This document shows positions 3,520 through 61,010 of a DNA stretch of 64,000 nt, piece after piece. Location: contig CAZIYE010000001.1 in the NCBI GenBank assembly GCA_964543385.1, positions 422,755 through 486,754 on the forward strand, written 5' to 3'. How positions within the stretch are numbered: the stretch's first letter is position 1; every line of letters begins with the position of its first letter. The translations under genes and the position numbers were made by a program. The notes below the pieces were generated by a model. It did no database searches. It saw only the letters and a list, made by a program, of their open reading frames with translations, and had not been told where the DNA came from. The stretch is from an uncultured Candidatus Saccharibacteria bacterium (GTDB taxonomy: Bacteria > Patescibacteriota > UBA1384 > XYA2-FULL-43-10 > 1-14-0-10-43-13).

Positions 3520-3686
3520 AGATTGATCTTACCAGATTATATATAAGCTTCCAAGATGATAAAAGTAGAAGACAGAATAAGATTGATTTAATTGAGAGAA
3601 AAGCTGCAATTTATTTGACTTTTATAACATTTTATTGTATATTATACATATCATCTCCCACATGGGAGTGCAAGGAGGTAGCTCCC

Positions 3687-4094
3687 ATGAGAGCTACGAC
3701 AATACTACTGGCCGCTTTAATCGCCCTTGTCACAATCTCCGGCTGCGGGATGGTAGAAGATCGCGTCAGGATCAACCCGACAGTCAAATCAGTGTCCATG
3801 GACTTCGGGAAGGAGGTGTTGCATATTAAGGTAGCTCCCTATGATTCCAACATCTACATACTGGGTACCGCCGTGGACTTACCGGACGGAACAACTAGCG
3901 CCGTCTCGCTCAACGTCAGCTATTGGAGCGGCTCCGCCCACCAATACAACTATGGCGATGCAGCATTCACCTTCTCGCCAGTGGATTTTAAAGCGGTATA
4001 CCGCTTTAAAATCCGAGTCGAGGGGCCCTCAATCGTCGCTGACGCTATTGAGGAAACATGGGAATATCAAGGGGGGCAGTGTATCAAGCTCTGA
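3687..4094 (+). CDS. Small secreted lipoprotein, GC-rich, unknown function
   Basis: AAGGAGGT RBS 8 nt upstream of ATG 3687. Signal peptide MRATTILLAALIALVTISGC with a lipobox Cys. GC about 50% versus about 37% background. The longer ORF-track start at 3615 lacks an RBS. Confidence 0.55.
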   Translation: MRATTILLAALIALVTISGCGMVEDRVRINPTVKSVSMDFGKEVLHIKVAPYDSNIYILGTAVDLPDGTTSAVSLNVSYWSGSAHQYNYGDAAFTFSPVDFKAVYRFKIRVEGPSIVADAIEETWEYQGGQCIKL

Positions 4095-4101
4095 ACGCCT
4101 T

Positions 4102-4140
4102 CGAGGCGGCCAACCGGCCGCCTCGATTGCATTTTATTGG
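4102..4140 (+). terminator. Intrinsic terminator hairpin (CGAGGCGGCC-aacc-GGCCGCCTCG) between convergent genes
   Basis: Perfect 10-bp GC stem with 4-nt loop, then a weak T-tract (ATTGCATTTTATT). Confidence 0.6.
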
Positions 4141-4153
4141 CTTTGTATCTTCT

Positions 4154-7100
4154 CTACCAAGACCAAGAGAATATAGTTATACTCCAACTCGTACCTAATC
4201 GTAGATTACCCTTTTGCGTATTAAAATAATCCGTTACCACACCAGTCAGAATATTGTCCCTGAAAAAACCCCAGACACCGTCAAGAATTGGCGAAAGAAT
4301 ATGATTGAGAAAATACTGGGTTCGATCACCTTTGCCCATCACCATAATATTCCAGAAATCATTAATAGTACTAATTTGGTTTTTGACCCAAGCCATTGCA
4401 TCATCTCCAACAGCGTTAACAAAGGCACCGAAACTAACAATTAGCTTAAAATTAACTTTAATCTCTTTATCACTAGTCAAATTTCTACATATCATTTTAC
4501 CTTCTTTTGTCGATTTTATATCTGTCGTTGGCCGCCCGCTGTCATCAAAATAACGTGGGGCTTCACAATCTGGCGCTGCCATGCTTTGAATTAGGAAGTT
4601 TCTGGATGCTTTTGCCACTATTTCCTTATTACTACCATAATCTAGCGTTACTACCCCGTTAGGATCAGTCGTTCCAAAAGGATTTCTCTTCGCAAGAGCT
4701 AATTGATTATTCTTATAGGTTTCGAGTCTGTCCGGTATAAAAGTTACCATTAGATTATTATAAAAATTATCGAGAGAACCAATCGCAGCCGCCGTATCAA
4801 TCTGAGCTGACGACAAAGTCAAACCGCGCGAGACAAGAGTCTGATTAAATTTTGGTATTATATCAAAATTAAATAACGAAGTAAGTTTATCTGTAATACT
4901 TGTGACTTTCCTCACAGTGCATTGAGGTGATCTTGGATTCTCTTGGCAAGCAATATTTACACACTGAGCCACCCCAACCTTGTCACCCAAAACTGCCTTA
5001 TTTATAATATCCGTATTTGAACATGGAGAAATACCAATAATTTGTCTGCTGACCAGCCCCCCTCTTCTGTCATTAATCGTAACTTCACGACTACCATTAG
5101 GCAAAACAGTCACAGTTGTGGTAGTACCATCTGAATTTGCGATAATTCTCATAGCTCCTGGTCGGTCCGGTACTGTATTGCCAAATAACCCAGCGCCAAG
5201 TCTTGTTAGGATGCTAGTCGCATTGCTCTCGAGTTCAGTAATCCCTTCAATTGTTTGCCTACCAAGCTTATAGGCGTTAGTAAGATTGACCTGGTCACGC
5301 CATAGCGACTTCACGTCGTTGATTTTAGAATCAACCCAGCCAAGAACACCCCCTCGTGTTTTTGCTTTGATTTGCTCAATTTGCGAAGCAGTATCGGCAT
5401 CCGTAATTACAGAATTAAGATCTTTCTGTACATTTAACCTGATTTGTTTGGGTCTGAAAGTCGCAGTAACTGTTTTATCAGAAGTGACGTTACTAACAGT
5501 ACATTGATAACCATCTGTCGATATATCCGTGCAACCGTTCCAAACAACTATGGAATTGTTTTCTGGCATAGTTGAAATGATTGCAGAATCGCCGTAATTC
5601 ACCACCTGAGTCAGCGGATTTACGCCATTTATAGAACCCAGATCAGTTCTTGAGACAGGATCATTCACTGAGCTCACAATCACCGTGAAGATCCTTTTGC
5701 GGACTTTGACTACGACATCATGATTTGCATCGATATTTGTAATACTGCAGGTTGATGCAGTAGGAGTGGTCGGCATACAGCCGGTCCAGCTAACGATTTC
5801 ACTACCTGCATCGATCAGTATCACCATAAAATTGACGTTACCGCCAGGGGCGATTTGCTGATTGGACGGGTTGATAGAAGCGCGGGCATTTGAAGCAGGA
5901 TCGATCATACCAGTGACTGTGTGCATCGTTGCAAAGGCAGCGTCAATTGTATGATCAGCAATAATAGATGTGAAAGCATAAGAGCCGGAACTGACAGCGG
6001 CATTATTAGTAGCACCGTCGATGCGAACATCCCTGATATTATATCCGAGAGCAGCAGTTACCAAATAAGATTGAGAATCACCATAATTTACCGTCTTTAC
6101 ACCAGCGGGTGTGATCAAGCCGTTTACTCCTGCTGTTGATTTGATAGTAAAAGTCTTGAGTTTAAAGGTGGCGATGACTGTCCTATTGGAGATGATATTG
6201 TCAAGTTTACAAAGGTCAGACTCAATACTATCGCAACCGGACCAATCAGTATTGGGATTAAATTCAACGGATGAAATAGCCGCAGTAGCTTTTATTAGTA
6301 AAATATCACCCATATTAACTACTGTGTAGGGAATTGTTTTGTCAAAAGTTCCGTCACCATTGCCTGCCTTATTGATACTAATAGTATATGTGTTAATAGC
6401 AAAACTAACATAAATACTATGATCGCCCGATATATTAGAGAATGTATAACTTGAAACTAAATCCACGGGATTTGCATCAACAACTAATGTTTCTATATGA
6501 TAATTAACTGCCGGAGTGAAGGTATAAGTTTTAGATTGTCCGTAGCTCACATAAGTTATGCCTGGTGATGAAATCGCCCCGTTAGAACCGAGAACTGCAT
6601 TAATCGAATATGTCCTAATAATAAAAGTAACTGCAATTGTGTGATTAGAATCAACATTGTCAAACCAGTAGGAGCTATCAGCAACAGCCGTAGGGTTGTT
6701 CACTCCGTCAACCAACACCTGATATATAAGATAACCATTATTAGGGGTAAATGTGTATAATTTAGAATAATCATATCCTACCATCGTAACACCTGGAGTC
6801 AAAATTGAACCGTTTTGACCTGCTGTAGCTGTAATAGCATAAGTATCGCGAGTATAGACTACCGAGACCGTGTGATTAGCGGAAATATCAGAGAAAGTAT
6901 AAAAGCCTGCAGCTATCGCTCCGCTATTTGATACTCCGTCCACTAAGACTTCACCTATATGATAGTGATTCTCCGACGTGAAAGTATAAGTCTTAGAGGA
7001 ATCCCAATTTACAACAGTAGCTCCTGGTGAAGTGATTGAGCCGTTCGAACCTGTTGTGGCAGTAATGGTGTAGGTATTAATGTCAAAAGTAGCCGAGATA

Positions 7101-8797
7101 GTGTGATTAGCAGTTACATTGGTAAAGTTATATGAACTTACAGCACCGACAGATGAACCGTTTACTCGAACATCAGAGATATGATAGCCGTCATTCGATG
7201 TGACGGTGTAAGATTGAGAACCATTTGTAGCTACACTGGTCGTTCCAGGAGGCGAGATTGTACCATTAGCGCCAGAAGAAGCTGTGATAGAATAATCACC
7301 CGCAGTAGTTACCACAAAGGGATAATTTGTCGTGCCTCCATTTGTAGTTATAATACAGGATCCAGCACCTATTGCTGCGCCAACTGGCACAGTAAGTATA
7401 ATAGACGTATTTGTCCATGTAGTAGGAGAACCTGCTACGGCTCCTATGGATATGGTTGAATTTCCTTGATTCAAGCCAAAATCAGTACCAGTAATCACGA
7501 CAATGTCACCAACATCTCCATTCGACGGATCTATTGATGTAATCGCGGGGACATTAGGCGTATTATAATGAACCGTCATAGCATCAAATATGGGAGTGAC
7601 TGTGGTATCTTCTGTAATAAGAATTATCTTTATCTGAGCATAACGTCCAGTTGGGACAATATGGTTTATGCCAATTACAAAAGTACTGGCTTGGTGGTTG
7701 GCATCTTCGCTCCACTCAGCAGCAGATAAACCGGCTTCAGTATCAGCTGCCCTTAGCCGGACTTCGAAATCAGTATTGGTGGGGACTGTCACAGTCCAGT
7801 CAGCATAATTCCAGTATGTACCGCTAAGACCTGAATCATAAGTAGTAATGGCAGTACCTACAGAAGAGAAAGCCGGGAAGGTGCCAGCTGTATTAACCCC
7901 ACTTAAGATATCATTATAAAGAGCAGAATTACCCGATACATCACTTGGATAGAAGCCCATGCCCCCCTGCATTACAGCAGCATTGATGGTGTGGTCAGAT
8001 ATAGAAGAAGCTGCTAATTGCAAAACAGCCGAAGTAATTGGCCCCGAAAGAATAGATGGATCTATAATGATAAAAGCTCTCTCGCCTTTTCCACCATAGT
8101 TTCCAATGTATCCAACCGTAGTCATCCCTCCTCGTGTCCCATCAGAGTAAACGTTGAATAAGTCAGACGTCACGCTTGGCAATGTAATTGTACCATTATC
8201 AGTAATAATCCTAATCGAACTATCGCGAGCCCCGTCAGTGCCAATCCAACTCTCCTCATCAGCATTTTCAGCCGAATCTTTAAAACCAATAATGACCAAC
8301 TCTTCATTTTCTTTAGCATAATTCATCCGCTGAATAAAGGCACAACTTAGAGTAATATCTTTAGAACCACCATCAGCGGTGAAATCAGCTGCTGCTAGTG
8401 AAGGCTCAGTAATATTTCCTACAGCGGTTGGACAACCACCATCAAGCTGAAAAAATCCCTGGGTTAATGGAGTGCCATTATCGACACCGCTTAGATCAAA
8501 ATTCGATAAATCAATAGTATCGTCCCAAGTTTTAGTCAGGGAGGCAGCCTTTAAATGCTGTTGCGGATTTGATATCAAGACAGCGGTAAATAATGAAAAA
8601 ACGACTAAACTGAAAAATAAAAACACCCAATGACTAGTCCTAGCAATTGGATTGATATGCCATCTATAATACCAGCGGAAATGCATCCTCAAAAAATTAT
8701 GCAGCTTTGATGCCCAAGGCATCAAAGCTTTAGTACTTCGCTGAATACGAATTAACTTTTTATCTAACTCTTGGATATTAATTTGAGATGATGTCAT
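4154..8797 (-). CDS. Giant surface protein: N-terminal TM anchor, IPT/TIG domain, at least 6 tandem Ig-like (InlB-B-repeat-like) domains, about 550-aa Cys-containing C-terminal domain
   Basis: 1547 aa. A single hydrophobic helix (WVFLFFSLVVFSLFTAVLI) near the N-terminus. IPT/TIG-like segment (PAITSIDPSNGDVGDIVVITGTDFG...). About 78-aa repeats with the pattern G.NG.I..PG......Y.....YTFT...GY.I..V.VDG.......Y.F.NV..NHTI...F repeated at least 6 times. Confidence 0.8.
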   Translation of the reverse strand: MTSSQINIQELDKKLIRIQRSTKALMPWASKLHNFLRMHFRWYYRWHINPIARTSHWVFLFFSLVVFSLFTAVLISNPQQHLKAASLTKTWDDTIDLSNFDLSGVDNGTPLTQGFFQLDGGCPTAVGNITEPSLAAADFTADGGSKDITLSCAFIQRMNYAKENEELVIIGFKDSAENADEESWIGTDGARDSSIRIITDNGTITLPSVTSDLFNVYSDGTRGGMTTVGYIGNYGGKGERAFIIIDPSILSGPITSAVLQLAASSISDHTINAAVMQGGMGFYPSDVSGNSALYNDILSGVNTAGTFPAFSSVGTAITTYDSGLSGTYWNYADWTVTVPTNTDFEVRLRAADTEAGLSAAEWSEDANHQASTFVIGINHIVPTGRYAQIKIILITEDTTVTPIFDAMTVHYNTPNVPAITSIDPSNGDVGDIVVITGTDFGLNQGNSTISIGAVAGSPTTWTNTSIILTVPVGAAIGAGSCIITTNGGTTNYPFVVTTAGDYSITASSGANGTISPPGTTSVATNGSQSYTVTSNDGYHISDVRVNGSSVGAVSSYNFTNVTANHTISATFDINTYTITATTGSNGSITSPGATVVNWDSSKTYTFTSENHYHIGEVLVDGVSNSGAIAAGFYTFSDISANHTVSVVYTRDTYAITATAGQNGSILTPGVTMVGYDYSKLYTFTPNNGYLIYQVLVDGVNNPTAVADSSYWFDNVDSNHTIAVTFIIRTYSINAVLGSNGAISSPGITYVSYGQSKTYTFTPAVNYHIETLVVDANPVDLVSSYTFSNISGDHSIYVSFAINTYTISINKAGNGDGTFDKTIPYTVVNMGDILLIKATAAISSVEFNPNTDWSGCDSIESDLCKLDNIISNRTVIATFKLKTFTIKSTAGVNGLITPAGVKTVNYGDSQSYLVTAALGYNIRDVRIDGATNNAAVSSGSYAFTSIIADHTIDAAFATMHTVTGMIDPASNARASINPSNQQIAPGGNVNFMVILIDAGSEIVSWTGCMPTTPTASTCSITNIDANHDVVVKVRKRIFTVIVSSVNDPVSRTDLGSINGVNPLTQVVNYGDSAIISTMPENNSIVVWNGCTDISTDGYQCTVSNVTSDKTVTATFRPKQIRLNVQKDLNSVITDADTASQIEQIKAKTRGGVLGWVDSKINDVKSLWRDQVNLTNAYKLGRQTIEGITELESNATSILTRLGAGLFGNTVPDRPGAMRIIANSDGTTTTVTVLPNGSREVTINDRRGGLVSRQIIGISPCSNTDIINKAVLGDKVGVAQCVNIACQENPRSPQCTVRKVTSITDKLTSLFNFDIIPKFNQTLVSRGLTLSSAQIDTAAAIGSLDNFYNNLMVTFIPDRLETYKNNQLALAKRNPFGTTDPNGVVTLDYGSNKEIVAKASRNFLIQSMAAPDCEAPRYFDDSGRPTTDIKSTKEGKMICRNLTSDKEIKVNFKLIVSFGAFVNAVGDDAMAWVKNQISTINDFWNIMVMGKGDRTQYFLNHILSPILDGVWGFFRDNILTGVVTDYFNTQKGNLRLGTSWSITIFSWSW
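5900..7200 (-). repeat. Degenerate tandem coding repeats (about 234-bp unit) encoding the Ig-like repeat array of the giant protein
   Basis: Periodicity seen at protein level (ISPPG/ITSPG/ILTPG/ISSPG ... NHTI..TF). Boundaries approximate. Confidence 0.55.
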
Positions 8798-8808
8798 ATT
8801 TTTCCAAA

Positions 8809-9528
8809 CTAAATTGGATTAATAATAAAACTCCAAAAACCCCTTCCTTTGGTTTCTTGTTCTATTTTGGTCTGACCCCGTAAAGAATCATAGATATAAG
8901 ATATGAATATTAATAACATCGGGAAGATAACAACCATAAACATTCCCATAAATAATTTACCAAATATCATTGAGACAATAGAGACAATCAGAAGAGAAAG
9001 AAACACCGTCCAAAATGCTCCCTTACCAATCTTGCGACTGTTTTTTATCGCCTCAATCGCTTTATCACCATCTGCCACTGCGAAGATATAAAATGCATAA
9101 TGTATTCCCCAGACGATTCCAATTAGGTCAAAAATAACAGTCGCAAAAGGAATAATGAATTTCAGAAGATTACCGACAATCGGTCCCGCTGCCAGAAGTG
9201 CGGAGACCGCTAATGAAGCCATTATGAGGTTCCACATGTTTTTCTTCAATGAATATATTTCTTTCAGACTTGTTTTCTTACTCCTGACAACATCCAATGA
9301 TATCCTGAGACAAACGAGCAGTGCAATAGAATTAATAATTGCAACAGAGATATATATAATAAATTGATATAAAAGACCAACATAGGTTGCACTGGCAATA
9401 ATTTCGTAAATCATAATGTTGAAGATAGCGGCCAAAGACACAACCATCAAAAATATCGGCCATATCTTCCACACAAACCGTAATGAAAAGATAAAGGCAT
9501 TTTTTATAGAAACCTTCTTCTCGGACAT
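8809..9528 (-). CDS. Polytopic membrane protein (about 6 TM), unknown; probably co-transcribed upstream of the giant surface protein
   Basis: 239 aa, multiple hydrophobic helices, 11-bp gap to the next gene on the same strand. Confidence 0.55.
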   Translation of the reverse strand: MSEKKVSIKNAFIFSLRFVWKIWPIFLMVVSLAAIFNIMIYEIIASATYVGLLYQFIIYISVAIINSIALLVCLRISLDVVRSKKTSLKEIYSLKKNMWNLIMASLAVSALLAAGPIVGNLLKFIIPFATVIFDLIGIVWGIHYAFYIFAVADGDKAIEAIKNSRKIGKGAFWTVFLSLLIVSIVSMIFGKLFMGMFMVVIFPMLLIFISYIYDSLRGQTKIEQETKGRGFWSFIINPI

Positions 9529-9594
9529 TTCCCCTCCAAAAGAACTAAAAAAATACTAATGCTAATATAGCCTATTTATGTAGTTATAGTCAAT

Positions 9595-26317: not shown

Positions 26318-28639
26318 ATGAACAAGACAGAACTAGCTAAAATTTTAGCTAGCAAAATCAAAAAAGACCCGAAAGTTGCCGAAAAAATGATCAATTCTTT
26401 TGGCGATACTGTTACTGAAGTATTATCAAAAGGCGGCAAAATCGTCTATTCTAACTTCGGTACTTTTTATACTGTTCATTATCCATCTAAGGTTATTTAC
26501 CATCCAACGCTTGGCACTAAGAAAAAAATGATCATGTTACCTACAAATGCAGTCAAATGGATGCCATCAGGTAATATTAAAGATATGGTAAATTCCGGCA
26601 AAGAAATCGAGGGAGCGACAACTTTTGGCGCCAGCAAAAAAATTAAGGATCTGCATCTCAACCCCGCAGTAGAAGAAACTATAATTGATAATACAAAAGA
26701 TATGGATAAAAGCCAGGAAATTGGTGGTTCATTGACATATTCTAGCTCAGAGCATGAAGATCAAGAGGAAGTTGAAATCCCTATCCGTAATATTTCAAAG
26801 AATAAAATCGAGGATAATACGACTATTGATGATAAGAAAGCTACTCCGGCAGTAGAAGACAAAGATGGTTTCTGGGATCAACTATTTAAAAAAGCAAACG
26901 ACGATTCCAAAAATATCGACCAAAGCAAAAAAATAGAGACAGATAGTATAGATAGCAAAAATGATAAATCACCCTCAGTCGGATTGGGCTTGTTTGGTGC
27001 CAATACGTCGTCGAAACAAGAAATCAAAGCCCCTACTCCTAATGTCATAGATGGTCAAAATATCGAGCCAGAAGAAGAAAGCCTATCTCCTTACATAAAC
27101 AGAAAAACTTCCATCTCATATATCGACTTATCCAAGACGACAGTACCCAAAGAAATCTTACAAATGATTTCAGAAAAAATTGCCAGAGAATATAAAATTG
27201 TTCCAGTCGAAGATAGTAATGATGGACTAGTGGTTGGCATGGTCGACCCAGAAGATATTGAAGCAATAGAGATTGTGAAAAAGATTATCGGCAAAAAGGT
27301 TTTGCCAAAGCTGACAACTGAAACTGACCTAAACCACGTTTTGGACCAATACCAAGGTTTCGAAAGTGAGGTGAAGGAAGCGATTGAAGATGTTGAAGAT
27401 AAAGATCATAAAAAAGAAGAAGATCAAAAATCTGCGTCGATAATATCAAGCTCCGCGCCAGCATCTAGGATTGTTAGTTCGCTATTAAAACGAGCCATTA
27501 GAGATAAGGCATCAGACATACATATAGAACCATATGAGGATGAAGTGACTGTACGTTTTCGTATTGATGGCGTCCTACATAAGAAAGTATCTCTGCCAAA
27601 AGATATTCAGCAAGCAGTAGTTTCACGCATCAAAATTTTATCAAACCTAAAAATAGACGAGCAACGTCTACCACAAGATGGACGCTTTAGTATTATGGCA
27701 GACAACCGTAAAGTTGATTTTCGTGTCTCAACCATGCCAATTGCAAATGGCGAAAAAGTAGTTATGAGAATCTTGGATAAGCTCTCAGGGATAATTTCAA
27801 TTGATGACCTAGGCTTTCGAGAAAGAGATTTTTCTCTTATCAATAATAGCTGCCAAAAATCTCATGGAATGATCTTAGTAACTGGCCCTACTGGATCGGG
27901 CAAGACAACAACTCTTTACGCCCTGATACAGAAAATATACAGCGAAGGTATTAATATCATTACTTTAGAGGACCCTATCGAATACCAAATCCCCGGCATT
28001 AATCAGAGCCAGGTGAATGCGGAAATAGATTACACTTTTGCCTCCGGCCTGCGCTCCATTTTACGTCAAGACCCGGATGTCGTTATGATTGGAGAGATAA
28101 GAGATAGAGAAACAGCTGAGATGGCCGTACACGCAGCCTTGACTGGTCATGTTGTTCTTTCCACACTTCATACCAATGATTCTGCAGGCGCAATTCCTAG
28201 ATTAGTAGATATGAATATAGAACCATTTCTATTAAATTCATCTCTAAATCTGATTCTAGCCCAAAGATTAGCGAGAAGAATTTGTGATTCCTGCAAAGAA
28301 GAAATAAATCCATCCCAAGACCAATTAAAACTAATTAAGAATGAATTAGACAAAATGCCCCGTGAAGAAAAGGCAAAAATCGGTAATAAAATTAAATTTT
28401 ACAAGGGCAAGGGCTGTAAAGATTGTTCCAATACTGGATATAAAGGCAGAATAGGAATTTATGAAGTGCTTGAAGTTGATAAGAAGATAAAAGATTTAGT
28501 CGCCAATAAAGCGTCGTCGAATGGGATTGAGGAGAGTGCTATTCAAAATGGCATGACGACAATGATACAAGATGGAATTTTAAAAGCAATCAGCGGTCTT
28601 ACTACAATTGAAGAAGTATGGAGGGTCACCAAGGAATAA
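26318..28639 (+). CDS. pilB: Type IV pilus assembly ATPase PilB/GspE with an N-terminal HU/IHF-like DNA-binding domain and an acidic low-complexity linker
   Basis: AAGGAG RBS. Residues 1-95 (MNKTELAKILASK...FGTFYTVHYPSKVIYHPTLGTKKKMIMLPTNAVKWMPSGNIKDMV) match the HU-fold pattern (MNK.EL...FGTF...P.TG..I.I...P.F..G...KD.V). About 165-aa D/E/K/S-rich linker. GspE_N domain. Walker A GPTGSGKTTT, His box, tetracysteine CDSC...CKDC. One uninterrupted 773-codon frame. Confidence 0.85.
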   Translation: MNKTELAKILASKIKKDPKVAEKMINSFGDTVTEVLSKGGKIVYSNFGTFYTVHYPSKVIYHPTLGTKKKMIMLPTNAVKWMPSGNIKDMVNSGKEIEGATTFGASKKIKDLHLNPAVEETIIDNTKDMDKSQEIGGSLTYSSSEHEDQEEVEIPIRNISKNKIEDNTTIDDKKATPAVEDKDGFWDQLFKKANDDSKNIDQSKKIETDSIDSKNDKSPSVGLGLFGANTSSKQEIKAPTPNVIDGQNIEPEEESLSPYINRKTSISYIDLSKTTVPKEILQMISEKIAREYKIVPVEDSNDGLVVGMVDPEDIEAIEIVKKIIGKKVLPKLTTETDLNHVLDQYQGFESEVKEAIEDVEDKDHKKEEDQKSASIISSSAPASRIVSSLLKRAIRDKASDIHIEPYEDEVTVRFRIDGVLHKKVSLPKDIQQAVVSRIKILSNLKIDEQRLPQDGRFSIMADNRKVDFRVSTMPIANGEKVVMRILDKLSGIISIDDLGFRERDFSLINNSCQKSHGMILVTGPTGSGKTTTLYALIQKIYSEGINIITLEDPIEYQIPGINQSQVNAEIDYTFASGLRSILRQDPDVVMIGEIRDRETAEMAVHAALTGHVVLSTLHTNDSAGAIPRLVDMNIEPFLLNSSLNLILAQRLARRICDSCKEEINPSQDQLKLIKNELDKMPREEKAKIGNKIKFYKGKGCKDCSNTGYKGRIGIYEVLEVDKKIKDLVANKASSNGIEESAIQNGMTTMIQDGILKAISGLTTIEEVWRVTKE

Positions 28640-59363: not shown

Positions 59364-61010
59364 TTATGATTTGGTTACTCTCCAAACTTCTTCAATAGTA
59401 GTAGAGCCGGAAAGAGCTTTTATTAGACCATCTTGCTCCATTGTTATAATCCCTGTTTTGGCTGCACATTTTTCAAACTCTGATATAGAAGCGCTTGCAG
59501 CTATCAACTTTTCTATCTCTTCATTTGGTACTAAAATTTCCACCATGACTTGGCGGCCAGAGAACCCGGTTGTATTACACCTTTCGCATCCCTTGCCTCT
59601 GATCAATTTGACGTATTTATGGCTAATAAGTTCTAAAATATTTTTAGGAAGTCTATCAGAGATTCTGCTTAATGTTTCGACAACCGCTTGCCATGTCTGA
59701 GGCGCTGGAGAATATTCTTCCTTGCAATAAGGACAAATTTTTCTAATTAAACGCTGTGCCATAATAAGATTGATTGATCCTGATAATAAGAATGGTTTTA
59801 CTCCTATTTCAAGTAATCTTGCAAAAACTGAAGGCGCTGAATTCGCATGAATTGTAGATAAAAGCAAATGACCAGTTAAGGCAGCTTGTACAGCAATTTC
59901 TGCCGTTTCTTGGTCGCGTATCTCTCCGACCATTAAAATGTCAGGATCTTGGCGCAAGGAGGCTCGTAGACCATCTGCAAATTCATATCCTTGATTTGGA
60001 CGGACCTGACTTTGCTCTATTCCCTCAATTTTGTATTCTACGGGATCTTCTAAAGTAATGATTTTAACCCCTGGCTTCTTTACCTCCATTAAAAAAGCAT
60101 ACAAAGTTGATGATTTACCGCTACCAGTCGGTCCAGAAGTCATAATCATGCCATGAGGCTTAGATATGGCCTCCTTTATTGCTGCTAATGCGTCAGGTCT
60201 GAATCCAAGATTATCTAGCCTGAGAATAGATTTCTCTTGACCCAAAAGACGTAATACTATAGATTCGCCATAAGCAGACGGCATGATAGAAACTCTAAAA
60301 TCTATTTTTTCACTAGGAGAAGAAAAAGAGAATCTACCATCCTGAGGTTCATTAGATATATCCATTCGCAAGCTAGACAAGAATTTAATCCTTGAGACCA
60401 ATTGCTTATGATATTGTAATGGCAAAACGACAACATCCTGTAGGACGCCATCGATTCTAAATCTTACCAAGAACTCTGTTTCTGATGGTTCCAGATGTAT
60501 ATCAGAAGCGTTCAATTTCATAGCGCCAAGTAGGACAACATCTAAAAGTTTTGTCGTGTTGGCTTTCTTGGCAGCATCGGCAGCAGATTTAATATCTGTT
60601 ACTTTAATATCGTCATATTCTTTTACTTTTTGTTGCTCTTTTTTCTCGACTTCAGCAATTTTACTTTTATCTGACTCGTAACATGAAATACCATAATAAA
60701 GACTGGTTTGAGACATTAATACCATTGTAATAGTTATCCCTGTTTTCTGTCCCAAAGCTTTCAGATATTGAGTCATTTCAGAATCGTCTGGATTCATCAC
60801 TCCAATCTTTACCTCATTACCGGTTTTTAGATAGGGGACTACATGGTACCTTATAGCCATTTCTTCTGGAACAAGATCAAGGACATCTTTTACTATCGGA
60901 TAGTTTGCTAAAGAGACATAAGACAAATTATGCTTTTTGGCACGCTCGATTGTGTGCTGTTCTTCTTGTTCTCTATTAAGATAATAAAGTGTGTCATTTA
61001 TATCAGTCAT
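59364..61010 (-). CDS. Second PilB/GspE-family secretion ATPase (T2SSE_N plus ATPase plus tetracysteine)
   Basis: GspE_N domain, Walker A SGPTGSGKSSTL, His box, CPYC...CERC; 548 aa; convergent with the paralog array at a 2-bp gap. Confidence 0.85.
   Translation of the reverse strand: MTDINDTLYYLNREQEEQHTIERAKKHNLSYVSLANYPIVKDVLDLVPEEMAIRYHVVPYLKTGNEVKIGVMNPDDSEMTQYLKALGQKTGITITMVLMSQTSLYYGISCYESDKSKIAEVEKKEQQKVKEYDDIKVTDIKSAADAAKKANTTKLLDVVLLGAMKLNASDIHLEPSETEFLVRFRIDGVLQDVVVLPLQYHKQLVSRIKFLSSLRMDISNEPQDGRFSFSSPSEKIDFRVSIMPSAYGESIVLRLLGQEKSILRLDNLGFRPDALAAIKEAISKPHGMIMTSGPTGSGKSSTLYAFLMEVKKPGVKIITLEDPVEYKIEGIEQSQVRPNQGYEFADGLRASLRQDPDILMVGEIRDQETAEIAVQAALTGHLLLSTIHANSAPSVFARLLEIGVKPFLLSGSINLIMAQRLIRKICPYCKEEYSPAPQTWQAVVETLSRISDRLPKNILELISHKYVKLIRGKGCERCNTTGFSGRQVMVEILVPNEEIEKLIAASASISEFEKCAAKTGIITMEQDGLIKALSGSTTIEEVWRVTKS

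Follow-up and report, generated by a model that had tools for sequence, protein, structure and literature searches.

A predicted membrane-anchored, B-repeat-stalked protein with an orphan tip: a candidate attachment fibre of an uncultured Candidatus Saccharibacteria bacterium

Introduction

The Saccharibacteria spend their lives attached to other bacteria; apart from type IV pili and a small number of adhesins, the means by which they recognise their hosts are largely obscure. Surface proteins that combine a repeat stalk with unassignable ends are common in Patescibacteria. Epibiotic growth of Saccharibacteria has been found to depend not only on type IV pili but also on several surface adhesins, and essential surface proteins of these organisms bear glycan-binding domains (PMC10633639). 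TIG and Flg_new domains are treated as stalk domains of fibrillar adhesins (PMC9210967), and the defining feature of Periscope proteins is repeats whose high identity at the DNA level permits changes in repeat number (PMC8201768). Here we describe a gene pair in a 64,000-nucleotide (nt) stretch of an uncultured Candidatus Saccharibacteria genome (assembly GCA_964543385.1, contig CAZIYE010000001.1, positions 422,755 to 486,754; hereafter the window), which encodes a 1547-amino-acid (aa) protein with a long repeat array and a 239-aa polytopic membrane protein. We lean towards reading the larger protein as a fibrillar-adhesin-like stalk displaying an orphan head, that is, as an attachment or recognition fibre.

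Architecture of the Stalk

The 1547-aa gene lies at 4154..8797 (stop codon included) and the 239-aa gene at 8809..9528, both as open reading frame (ORF) calls with their translations on the minus strand, to which all coordinates below refer unless another strand is given. An initial annotation of this locus, made from the sequence before any database search, had reported these sizes and a common strand, with the multi-transmembrane gene immediately upstream across a gap of 11 nt (8798-8808), and every one of these details is confirmed.

The core of the larger protein is a row of small domains. It begins with an IPT/TIG domain (PF01833; aa 417-492, 7322..7549), which the initial annotation had proposed and which scores above the gathering cutoff (31.1 bits against 20.9, E 2.3e-7). 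Beyond it, a profile made from the repeats of the protein itself delimits eight tandem B-repeats of the PF18998 type, each of ~77 aa (aa 502-1119, 5441..7294), where at least six had been counted before. R1 (aa 502-577, 7067-7294), R2 (aa 578-654, 6836-7066), R3 (aa 655-731, 6605-6835), R4 (aa 732-805, 6383-6604) and R6 (aa 884-961, 5915-6148) are strong units without Cys. R5 (aa 806-883, 6149-6382), R7 (aa 962-1037, 5687-5914) and R8 (aa 1038-1119, 5441-5686) are diverged and carry a W-x-G-C...C pair, at Cys 855/863, 1007/1017 and 1089/1099, respectively.

The assignment to a family is clear for one repeat and graded for the others. PF18998 (Flg_new_2, a divergent InlB B-repeat) is matched by R1 scanned alone at 25.7 bits, above the gathering score of 23.6; R4 (17.2 bits), R8 (13.9), R5 (13.7) and R3 (12.0), also scanned singly, fall below threshold; R2, R6, R7 and a probable ninth repeat described below (R9) give no match when scanned singly, and the family is not listed in the whole-protein scan. 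Across the full block of eight repeats (aa 502-1119) the protein is nevertheless 34-37% identical, over about 640 aa, to multi-repeat proteins annotated with PF18998. The earlier assignment to an InlB-B-repeat/Flg_new type is thus nearly right, the family being PF18998 and not PF09479 (Flg_new, the Listeria-Bacteroides repeat), which was matched by no repeat, even at E <= 10.

Structure prediction points to a chain of separate globular units. From an alignment of 23 rows of three-repeat segments (A1), AlphaFold2 (AF2) gave a model of R4-R5-R6 with a mean confidence (predicted local distance difference test, pLDDT) of 87, R4 and R6 being at ~95 and R5 at 62-80, in which the three repeats form separate, compact, all-beta beads. 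Sequence searches of the Protein Data Bank (PDB) with the whole protein and with the repeat profile returned no match; the model's best Foldseek matches are domains from the tandem stalks of Gram-positive adhesins and pilins (PitA, the SdrD B domains, YwfG, SHIRT and SpaC). The repeats, then, fold well in the model, and the worry voiced at the outset that they might fail to do so was not borne out. The name 'Ig-like' given to them is another matter. The prototype B-repeat fold is a beta-grasp, which makes the label doubtful, and the AF2 model says only that the beads are compact and all-beta; the term is probably wrong for the repeats, the TIG domain itself being Ig-like.

The initial annotation had also called the array a hotspot for recombinational length variation, and this we could not support. 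Tandem Repeats Finder reported no array at a minimum score of 30, and among direct DNA repeats the best extends over 43 nt at 77% identity. Pairwise identity among the repeats is 17-52% in amino acids and 52-66% in nucleotides, and no exact match is longer than 12 nt. Homologous recombination needs ~20-30 nt of identity, and the repeats fall well short of it. We also considered the gene as the target of a diversity-generating retroelement and rejected this, since the window holds no template repeat: a blastn search at low stringency, with 4154-9528 as query and the remainder of the window as target, produced nothing beyond chance-level matches of 51 nt or less.

Anchor and Membrane-Proximal Domain

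Ahead of the TIG domain the protein opens with a basic tail, presumed cytoplasmic (aa 1-56, 8630..8797; 10 K/R and 2 D/E, net +8), and a single transmembrane (TM) helix of signal-anchor type (aa 57-76, 8570..8629; Kyte-Doolittle maximum 2.59), which is the only strong hydrophobic segment of the protein. The 340 residues that follow have a net charge of -25, and by the positive-inside rule this difference from the tail favours a predicted N-in/C-out topology, in agreement with the type II orientation first suggested for a single N-terminal helix.

Those residues make up an acidic, probably extracellular domain (aa 77-416, 7550..8569) that was assigned to no family. No relative of it was seen in phage or plasmid records by tblastn, or by a metagenome pattern scan. 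Its last part (aa 329-414, nt 7556-7813) aligns weakly (pairwise E 0.065) with residues 923-1008 of another B-repeat protein, P0008, with which it has a loose motif in common (W..W....P..T..F..R ... RY.q...L.T....P...D), and the two may represent an undescribed beta-sandwich module of B-repeat proteins.

This similarity bears on a possibility that we consider quite improbable, namely that the protein is a surface-tethered enzyme or glycan-binding protein in which aa 77-416 or aa 1120-1368 is a highly diverged carbohydrate-binding or -degrading module acting on polymers of the host envelope. Besides the weak match to P0008, it draws on the Pfam lists of related multi-B-repeat proteins, which include peptidase, fucosidase and discoidin-type domains, and on the glycan-binding domains of essential Saccharibacteria surface proteins noted above (PMC10633639). 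With the isolated segments as queries, however, Pfam, NCBIfam and the PDB yielded nothing even at E = 10, and no catalytic motif was identified.

The Distal Region

At 38% GC a stop codon is expected ~1 per 15 codons, and the 428 open codons C-terminal to R8 (aa 1120-1547) cannot be put down to chance. These residues fall into three parts. The first is an orphan region (aa 1120-1368, 4694..5440) for which a low-confidence AF2 model gives mainly helices and, near aa 1216-1254, a small beta unit. The second (aa 1369-1449, 4451..4693) is a probable ninth, isolated B-repeat, R9, and the third (aa 1450-1547, 4157..4450) is an aromatic-rich orphan tail, with 6 W and 9 F in 98 aa, that ends in FSWSW, as the initial annotation had it. 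When aa 1106-1547 (442 aa) were compared by HMMER with 1.84 billion representative proteins, only the protein itself and one weak B-repeat match came back, in which aa 1369-1416 align with the first half of a P0055 B-repeat (phmmer E 4.7e-4 library-wide). This match, together with a motif C...C-x-NLTSDKEIKVNF in aa 1369-1449 that aligns with R5, R7 and R8, is what suggests R9. No segment of the C-terminal region matched Pfam, including isolated segments scanned at E = 10, and tblastn of the C-terminal domain found nothing in phage records.

The extent of the orphan sequence is smaller than was first thought. The initial annotation had described a C-terminus of ~550 aa with paired Cys residues and no recognisable family. 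That stretch starts inside R7, so that ~120 of its residues are R7 and R8, and most of its Cys pairs are those of the repeats, including 1411/1437 in R9; only Cys 1259, 1279, 1284 and 1293 lie in orphan sequence. With the Cys pairs assigned to repeats and R9 placed within the supposedly novel region, the unassigned C-terminus contracts to aa 1120-1368 plus the tail at aa 1450-1547. The lack of relatives, for these parts, holds.

An orphan C-terminal region is typical of the variable tips of toxins, the tail is amphipathic as well as aromatic-rich, and the organism's lifestyle is parasitic; together these raise the idea of a polymorphic-toxin-like effector, a filament delivering a hypervariable toxin or membrane-active module into a host bacterium. 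We find this very unlikely. Unlike polymorphic toxin systems, the locus has no pre-toxin or known toxin domain by Pfam, and the next ORF downstream is convergent and compositionally foreign rather than a co-oriented immunity gene; nor was a dedicated secretion partner recognised.

The same tail could instead bind the cell's own wall or membrane. This is the basis of a further explanation, that the rod and its terminal modules form an envelope scaffold or spacer, organising the wall or S-layer of the cell itself or setting envelope spacing, with the Trp/Phe-rich tail bound to its own envelope. The failure to find an adhesive domain fits this proposal, as does the fact that B-repeats were initially viewed as pure spacers (PMC12415215). 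A scaffold of this kind should be conserved in relatives, yet the gene is missing from the corresponding position of the closest genomes, and among 1.84e9 protein clusters no orthologue occurs; we regard the proposal as doubtful.

The Upstream Membrane Protein and Expression of the Pair

The 239-aa protein has ~6 hydrophobic spans (about 21-43, 49-75, 99-121, 124-151, 171-192 and 194-214) and a predicted N-in/C-in topology. It matched no Pfam, NCBIfam or PHROG family, and a homologue search returned only itself; a conserved pairing with the 1547-aa gene, which might have marked it as the dedicated partner first suggested, is for that reason not demonstrable. A motif of the form '...AIKNSRKIGKGAFW...' gives it a resemblance to DUF975/YciC-type membrane proteins, which no hidden Markov model (HMM) match supports and which we do not claim.

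Co-transcription of the two genes is plausible, given the common strand, the 11-nt gap, and the presence before the 239-aa gene of both a promoter-like site and a Shine-Dalgarno sequence. The former (TTGACT-18-TATATT, 9564..9593) matches the consensus at 10 of 12 positions in a scan and is a lead only; the latter, GGAGGGG, stands immediately 5' of the ATG. Within codons 23-32 of the 1547-aa gene, 69-95 nt into its coding region, a hairpin scan found a perfect 12-bp hairpin followed by a U-run (8703..8729). The 51 nt around it (8690-8740) fold with -19.8 kcal/mol (z = -4.1), and the structure could be an attenuator of read-through from the 239-aa gene. At the other end, a GC-rich 11-bp hairpin (4101..4126), with a T-run on the plus strand only, lies between the 1547-aa gene and a convergent lipoprotein-like ORF; the minus strand of the 69-nt segment that contains it (4085-4153) folds with -33 kcal/mol (z = -6.0).

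Genomic Setting and Origin

The pair is flanked upstream by RsmI (TP_methylase) and Nramp and downstream by methionyl-tRNA synthetase (MetRS). The flanking MetRS and RsmI are 82% and 76% identical, respectively, to those of an uncultured Candidatus Saccharibacteria metagenome-assembled genome, in keeping with the origin of the window in a Saccharibacteria (Patescibacteria) genome. In related genomes the order Nramp-RsmI-[slot]-MetRS is kept and the content of the slot differs, the cargo being mutually unrelated in each Saccharibacteria genome examined: window positions 3520-9594 here, an unrelated 227-aa protein in L002 (9219-9902), and in L003 (7494-8021) a 23S-rRNA-intervening-sequence protein on the opposite strand. 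The 227-aa ORF was considered as a homologue of the 239-aa protein and rejected, as the two are unrelated; tblastn of the 1547-aa protein against L002-L005 found nothing. This succession of unrelated cargo suggests a variable spot of integration or turnover. With other genes in the slot of the closest genomes, and no homologue of the 239-aa protein, the pair is by these comparisons lineage-specific.

The GC content at third codon positions (GC3, 0.33) and the synonymous-codon fit of the pair both fall within the values seen for 12 of the window's housekeeping genes. Such native codon usage speaks for a long stay in the genome, or for rapid divergence on the spot, and against recent import; horizontal transfer of the 1547-aa gene in recent times was rejected on this ground.

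The gene might also be a decaying, non-functional remnant of an old insertion, being a singleton in a variable genomic slot with orphan modules on both sides of the rod. Each of the two proteins is unnamed and the sole member of its 90%-identity cluster, a single allele being on record. We hold this to be extremely improbable. The frame is uninterrupted for 4.6 kb, ~0.7% of a genome of ~0.67 Mb and 38% GC. The codon usage is native, the domain signatures are intact, the repeat model folds well, and NCBI and Logan records contain both sequences unchanged, on five contigs of which the longest is 671 kb.

Two neighbouring features deserve mention in their own right. The convergent ORF beyond the downstream hairpin (3687-4094, plus strand; 135 aa) has a classic lipoprotein signal (MRATTILLAALIALVTISGC) and an AAGGAGG ribosome-binding site, and ends at the common hairpin. 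Its GC content of 0.52 and GC3 of 0.62, against 0.29-0.41 in the housekeeping genes, make it look recently acquired; it had no Pfam match, and tblastn found no match in plasmid records. Farther along the window, a single ORF of 773 aa (26318-28639, plus strand) encodes both an HU-like DNA-binding domain (aa 1-92) and a PilB-type ATPase (MshEN + T2SSE), connected by an acidic, low-complexity linker of ~170 aa, a fusion that is unusual if real; another PilB-type gene is present at 59364-61010.

A Proposed Attachment Fibre

Taken as a whole, the surface-stalk or fibre architecture first described for this protein, with an N-terminal anchor, a TIG domain, a long B-repeat array and a distal region without relatives, stands. 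The underlying observation was real and mostly accurate, and the interpretation is supported in part, the exceptions being the 'Ig-like' label and the recombination hotspot. An attachment or recognition fibre is favoured by the likeness to the architecture of fibrillar-adhesin-like proteins and by the attached growth of Saccharibacteria, which needs surface adhesins. From this architecture and this lifestyle we infer adhesion; topology, rod length, surface exposure and the role of the partner are likewise inferred.

The protein would be exported by Sec and retained in the cytoplasmic membrane through its uncleaved N-terminal signal-anchor (N-in), with the 340-aa acidic domain adjoining the membrane. 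The TIG domain and the eight B-repeats would form a beads-on-a-string rod, roughly 25-35 nm long when extended and enough to span the wall. At the tip, the ~430 C-terminal residues, comprising the mostly helical four-Cys orphan module, one B-repeat and the Trp/Phe-rich tail, would most likely contact a ligand on a host bacterium or another surface. The upstream six-TM protein, its gene probably co-transcribed, may aid insertion or anchoring.

Several points weigh against this proposal. In Pfam, NCBIfam and PHROG scans the 1547-aa protein showed no signature of a known adhesive domain, a lectin or an enzyme (NCBIfam and PHROG gave noise only), and it carries no sortase/LPxTG-type or other sorting motif, fibrillar adhesins being recognised by a sortase motif in their last 50 aa or by another anchor (PMC9210967). 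The membrane-proximal domain (aa 77-416) had no Pfam, NCBIfam, PHROG or PDB match, no sensitive full-database search having been made with it. The structure of the tip resisted prediction, a single-sequence AF2 model of the C-terminal 442 aa having a pLDDT of 35 and being left out of the fold search. Finally, no orthologues of the 1547-aa or the 239-aa protein were found, so that evidence from conservation, or from co-occurrence with the 239-aa gene, is not to be had.

A more specific form of the attachment-fibre reading seems to us rather unlikely: the C-terminal orphan module would be a head that recognises the host or engages its membrane and so sets host range, the six-TM protein would be its dedicated partner for insertion or anchoring, and the two would constitute a lineage-specific host-range cassette in the variable RsmI-MetRS slot. 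Unless the tip does determine host range, the significance of the protein is limited, and it overturns no expectation. Native codon usage, combined with a slot that differs between related genomes, nonetheless fits a rapidly evolving determinant of host interaction, and the 1547-aa gene is a reasonable candidate for genetics in a cultivable relative.

Comparison with Known Systems

The repeats place the protein beside the multi-B-repeat PF18998 proteins (P0002, P0003 and P0004) and the Listeria InlB B-repeat, all with a repeat of ~74-77 aa. With the PF18998 proteins it has in common, besides the identity over the eight repeats given above, the signature G.NG.I.P.G...V..G....F...P..GY.....VDG.......Y.F.NV..NHTI.A.F; those proteins differ from it in bearing unrelated terminal modules (RCC1, peptidase, type IX secretion system (T9SS) sorting and others). 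InlB differs in having a single B-repeat between its leucine-rich repeat (LRR) and GW domains.

As in the Periscope proteins (PMC8201768), a single-polypeptide rod of tandem globular domains would project a functional region from the cell. The DNA-level criterion that defines that group excludes it, and we rejected the identification: Tandem Repeats Finder saw no array, and the repeats are 52-66% identical in nucleotides and 17-52% in amino acids, with exact matches of 12 nt or less.

Closer in biology are the adhesins of Southlakia epibionticum found essential by transposon sequencing (Tn-seq), which are large extracytoplasmic proteins of an epibiotic Saccharibacterium with a proposed role in contact with the host surface (PMC10633639). 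Theirs contain VCBS, dockerin or FN3 domains, and no sequence relation to the present protein turned up, no direct comparison having been made.

The polarity of the protein is reversed with respect to LPxTG fibrillar adhesins, which are anchored through a C-terminal motif: here, in a Patescibacterium, an N-terminal TM helix serves as anchor and the head lies at the C-terminus. It also differs from fibrillar adhesins (PMC9210967) in having no known adhesive domain. Its stalk, with one TIG domain and eight tandem B-repeats, is of the sort by which those proteins are recognised (PMC9210967). Like fibrillar adhesins and fibrillar-adhesin-like proteins, it is long, built on a rod of repeated stalk domains of TIG and Flg_new type, anchored at one end, and provided with an unannotated distal region (PMC9210967).

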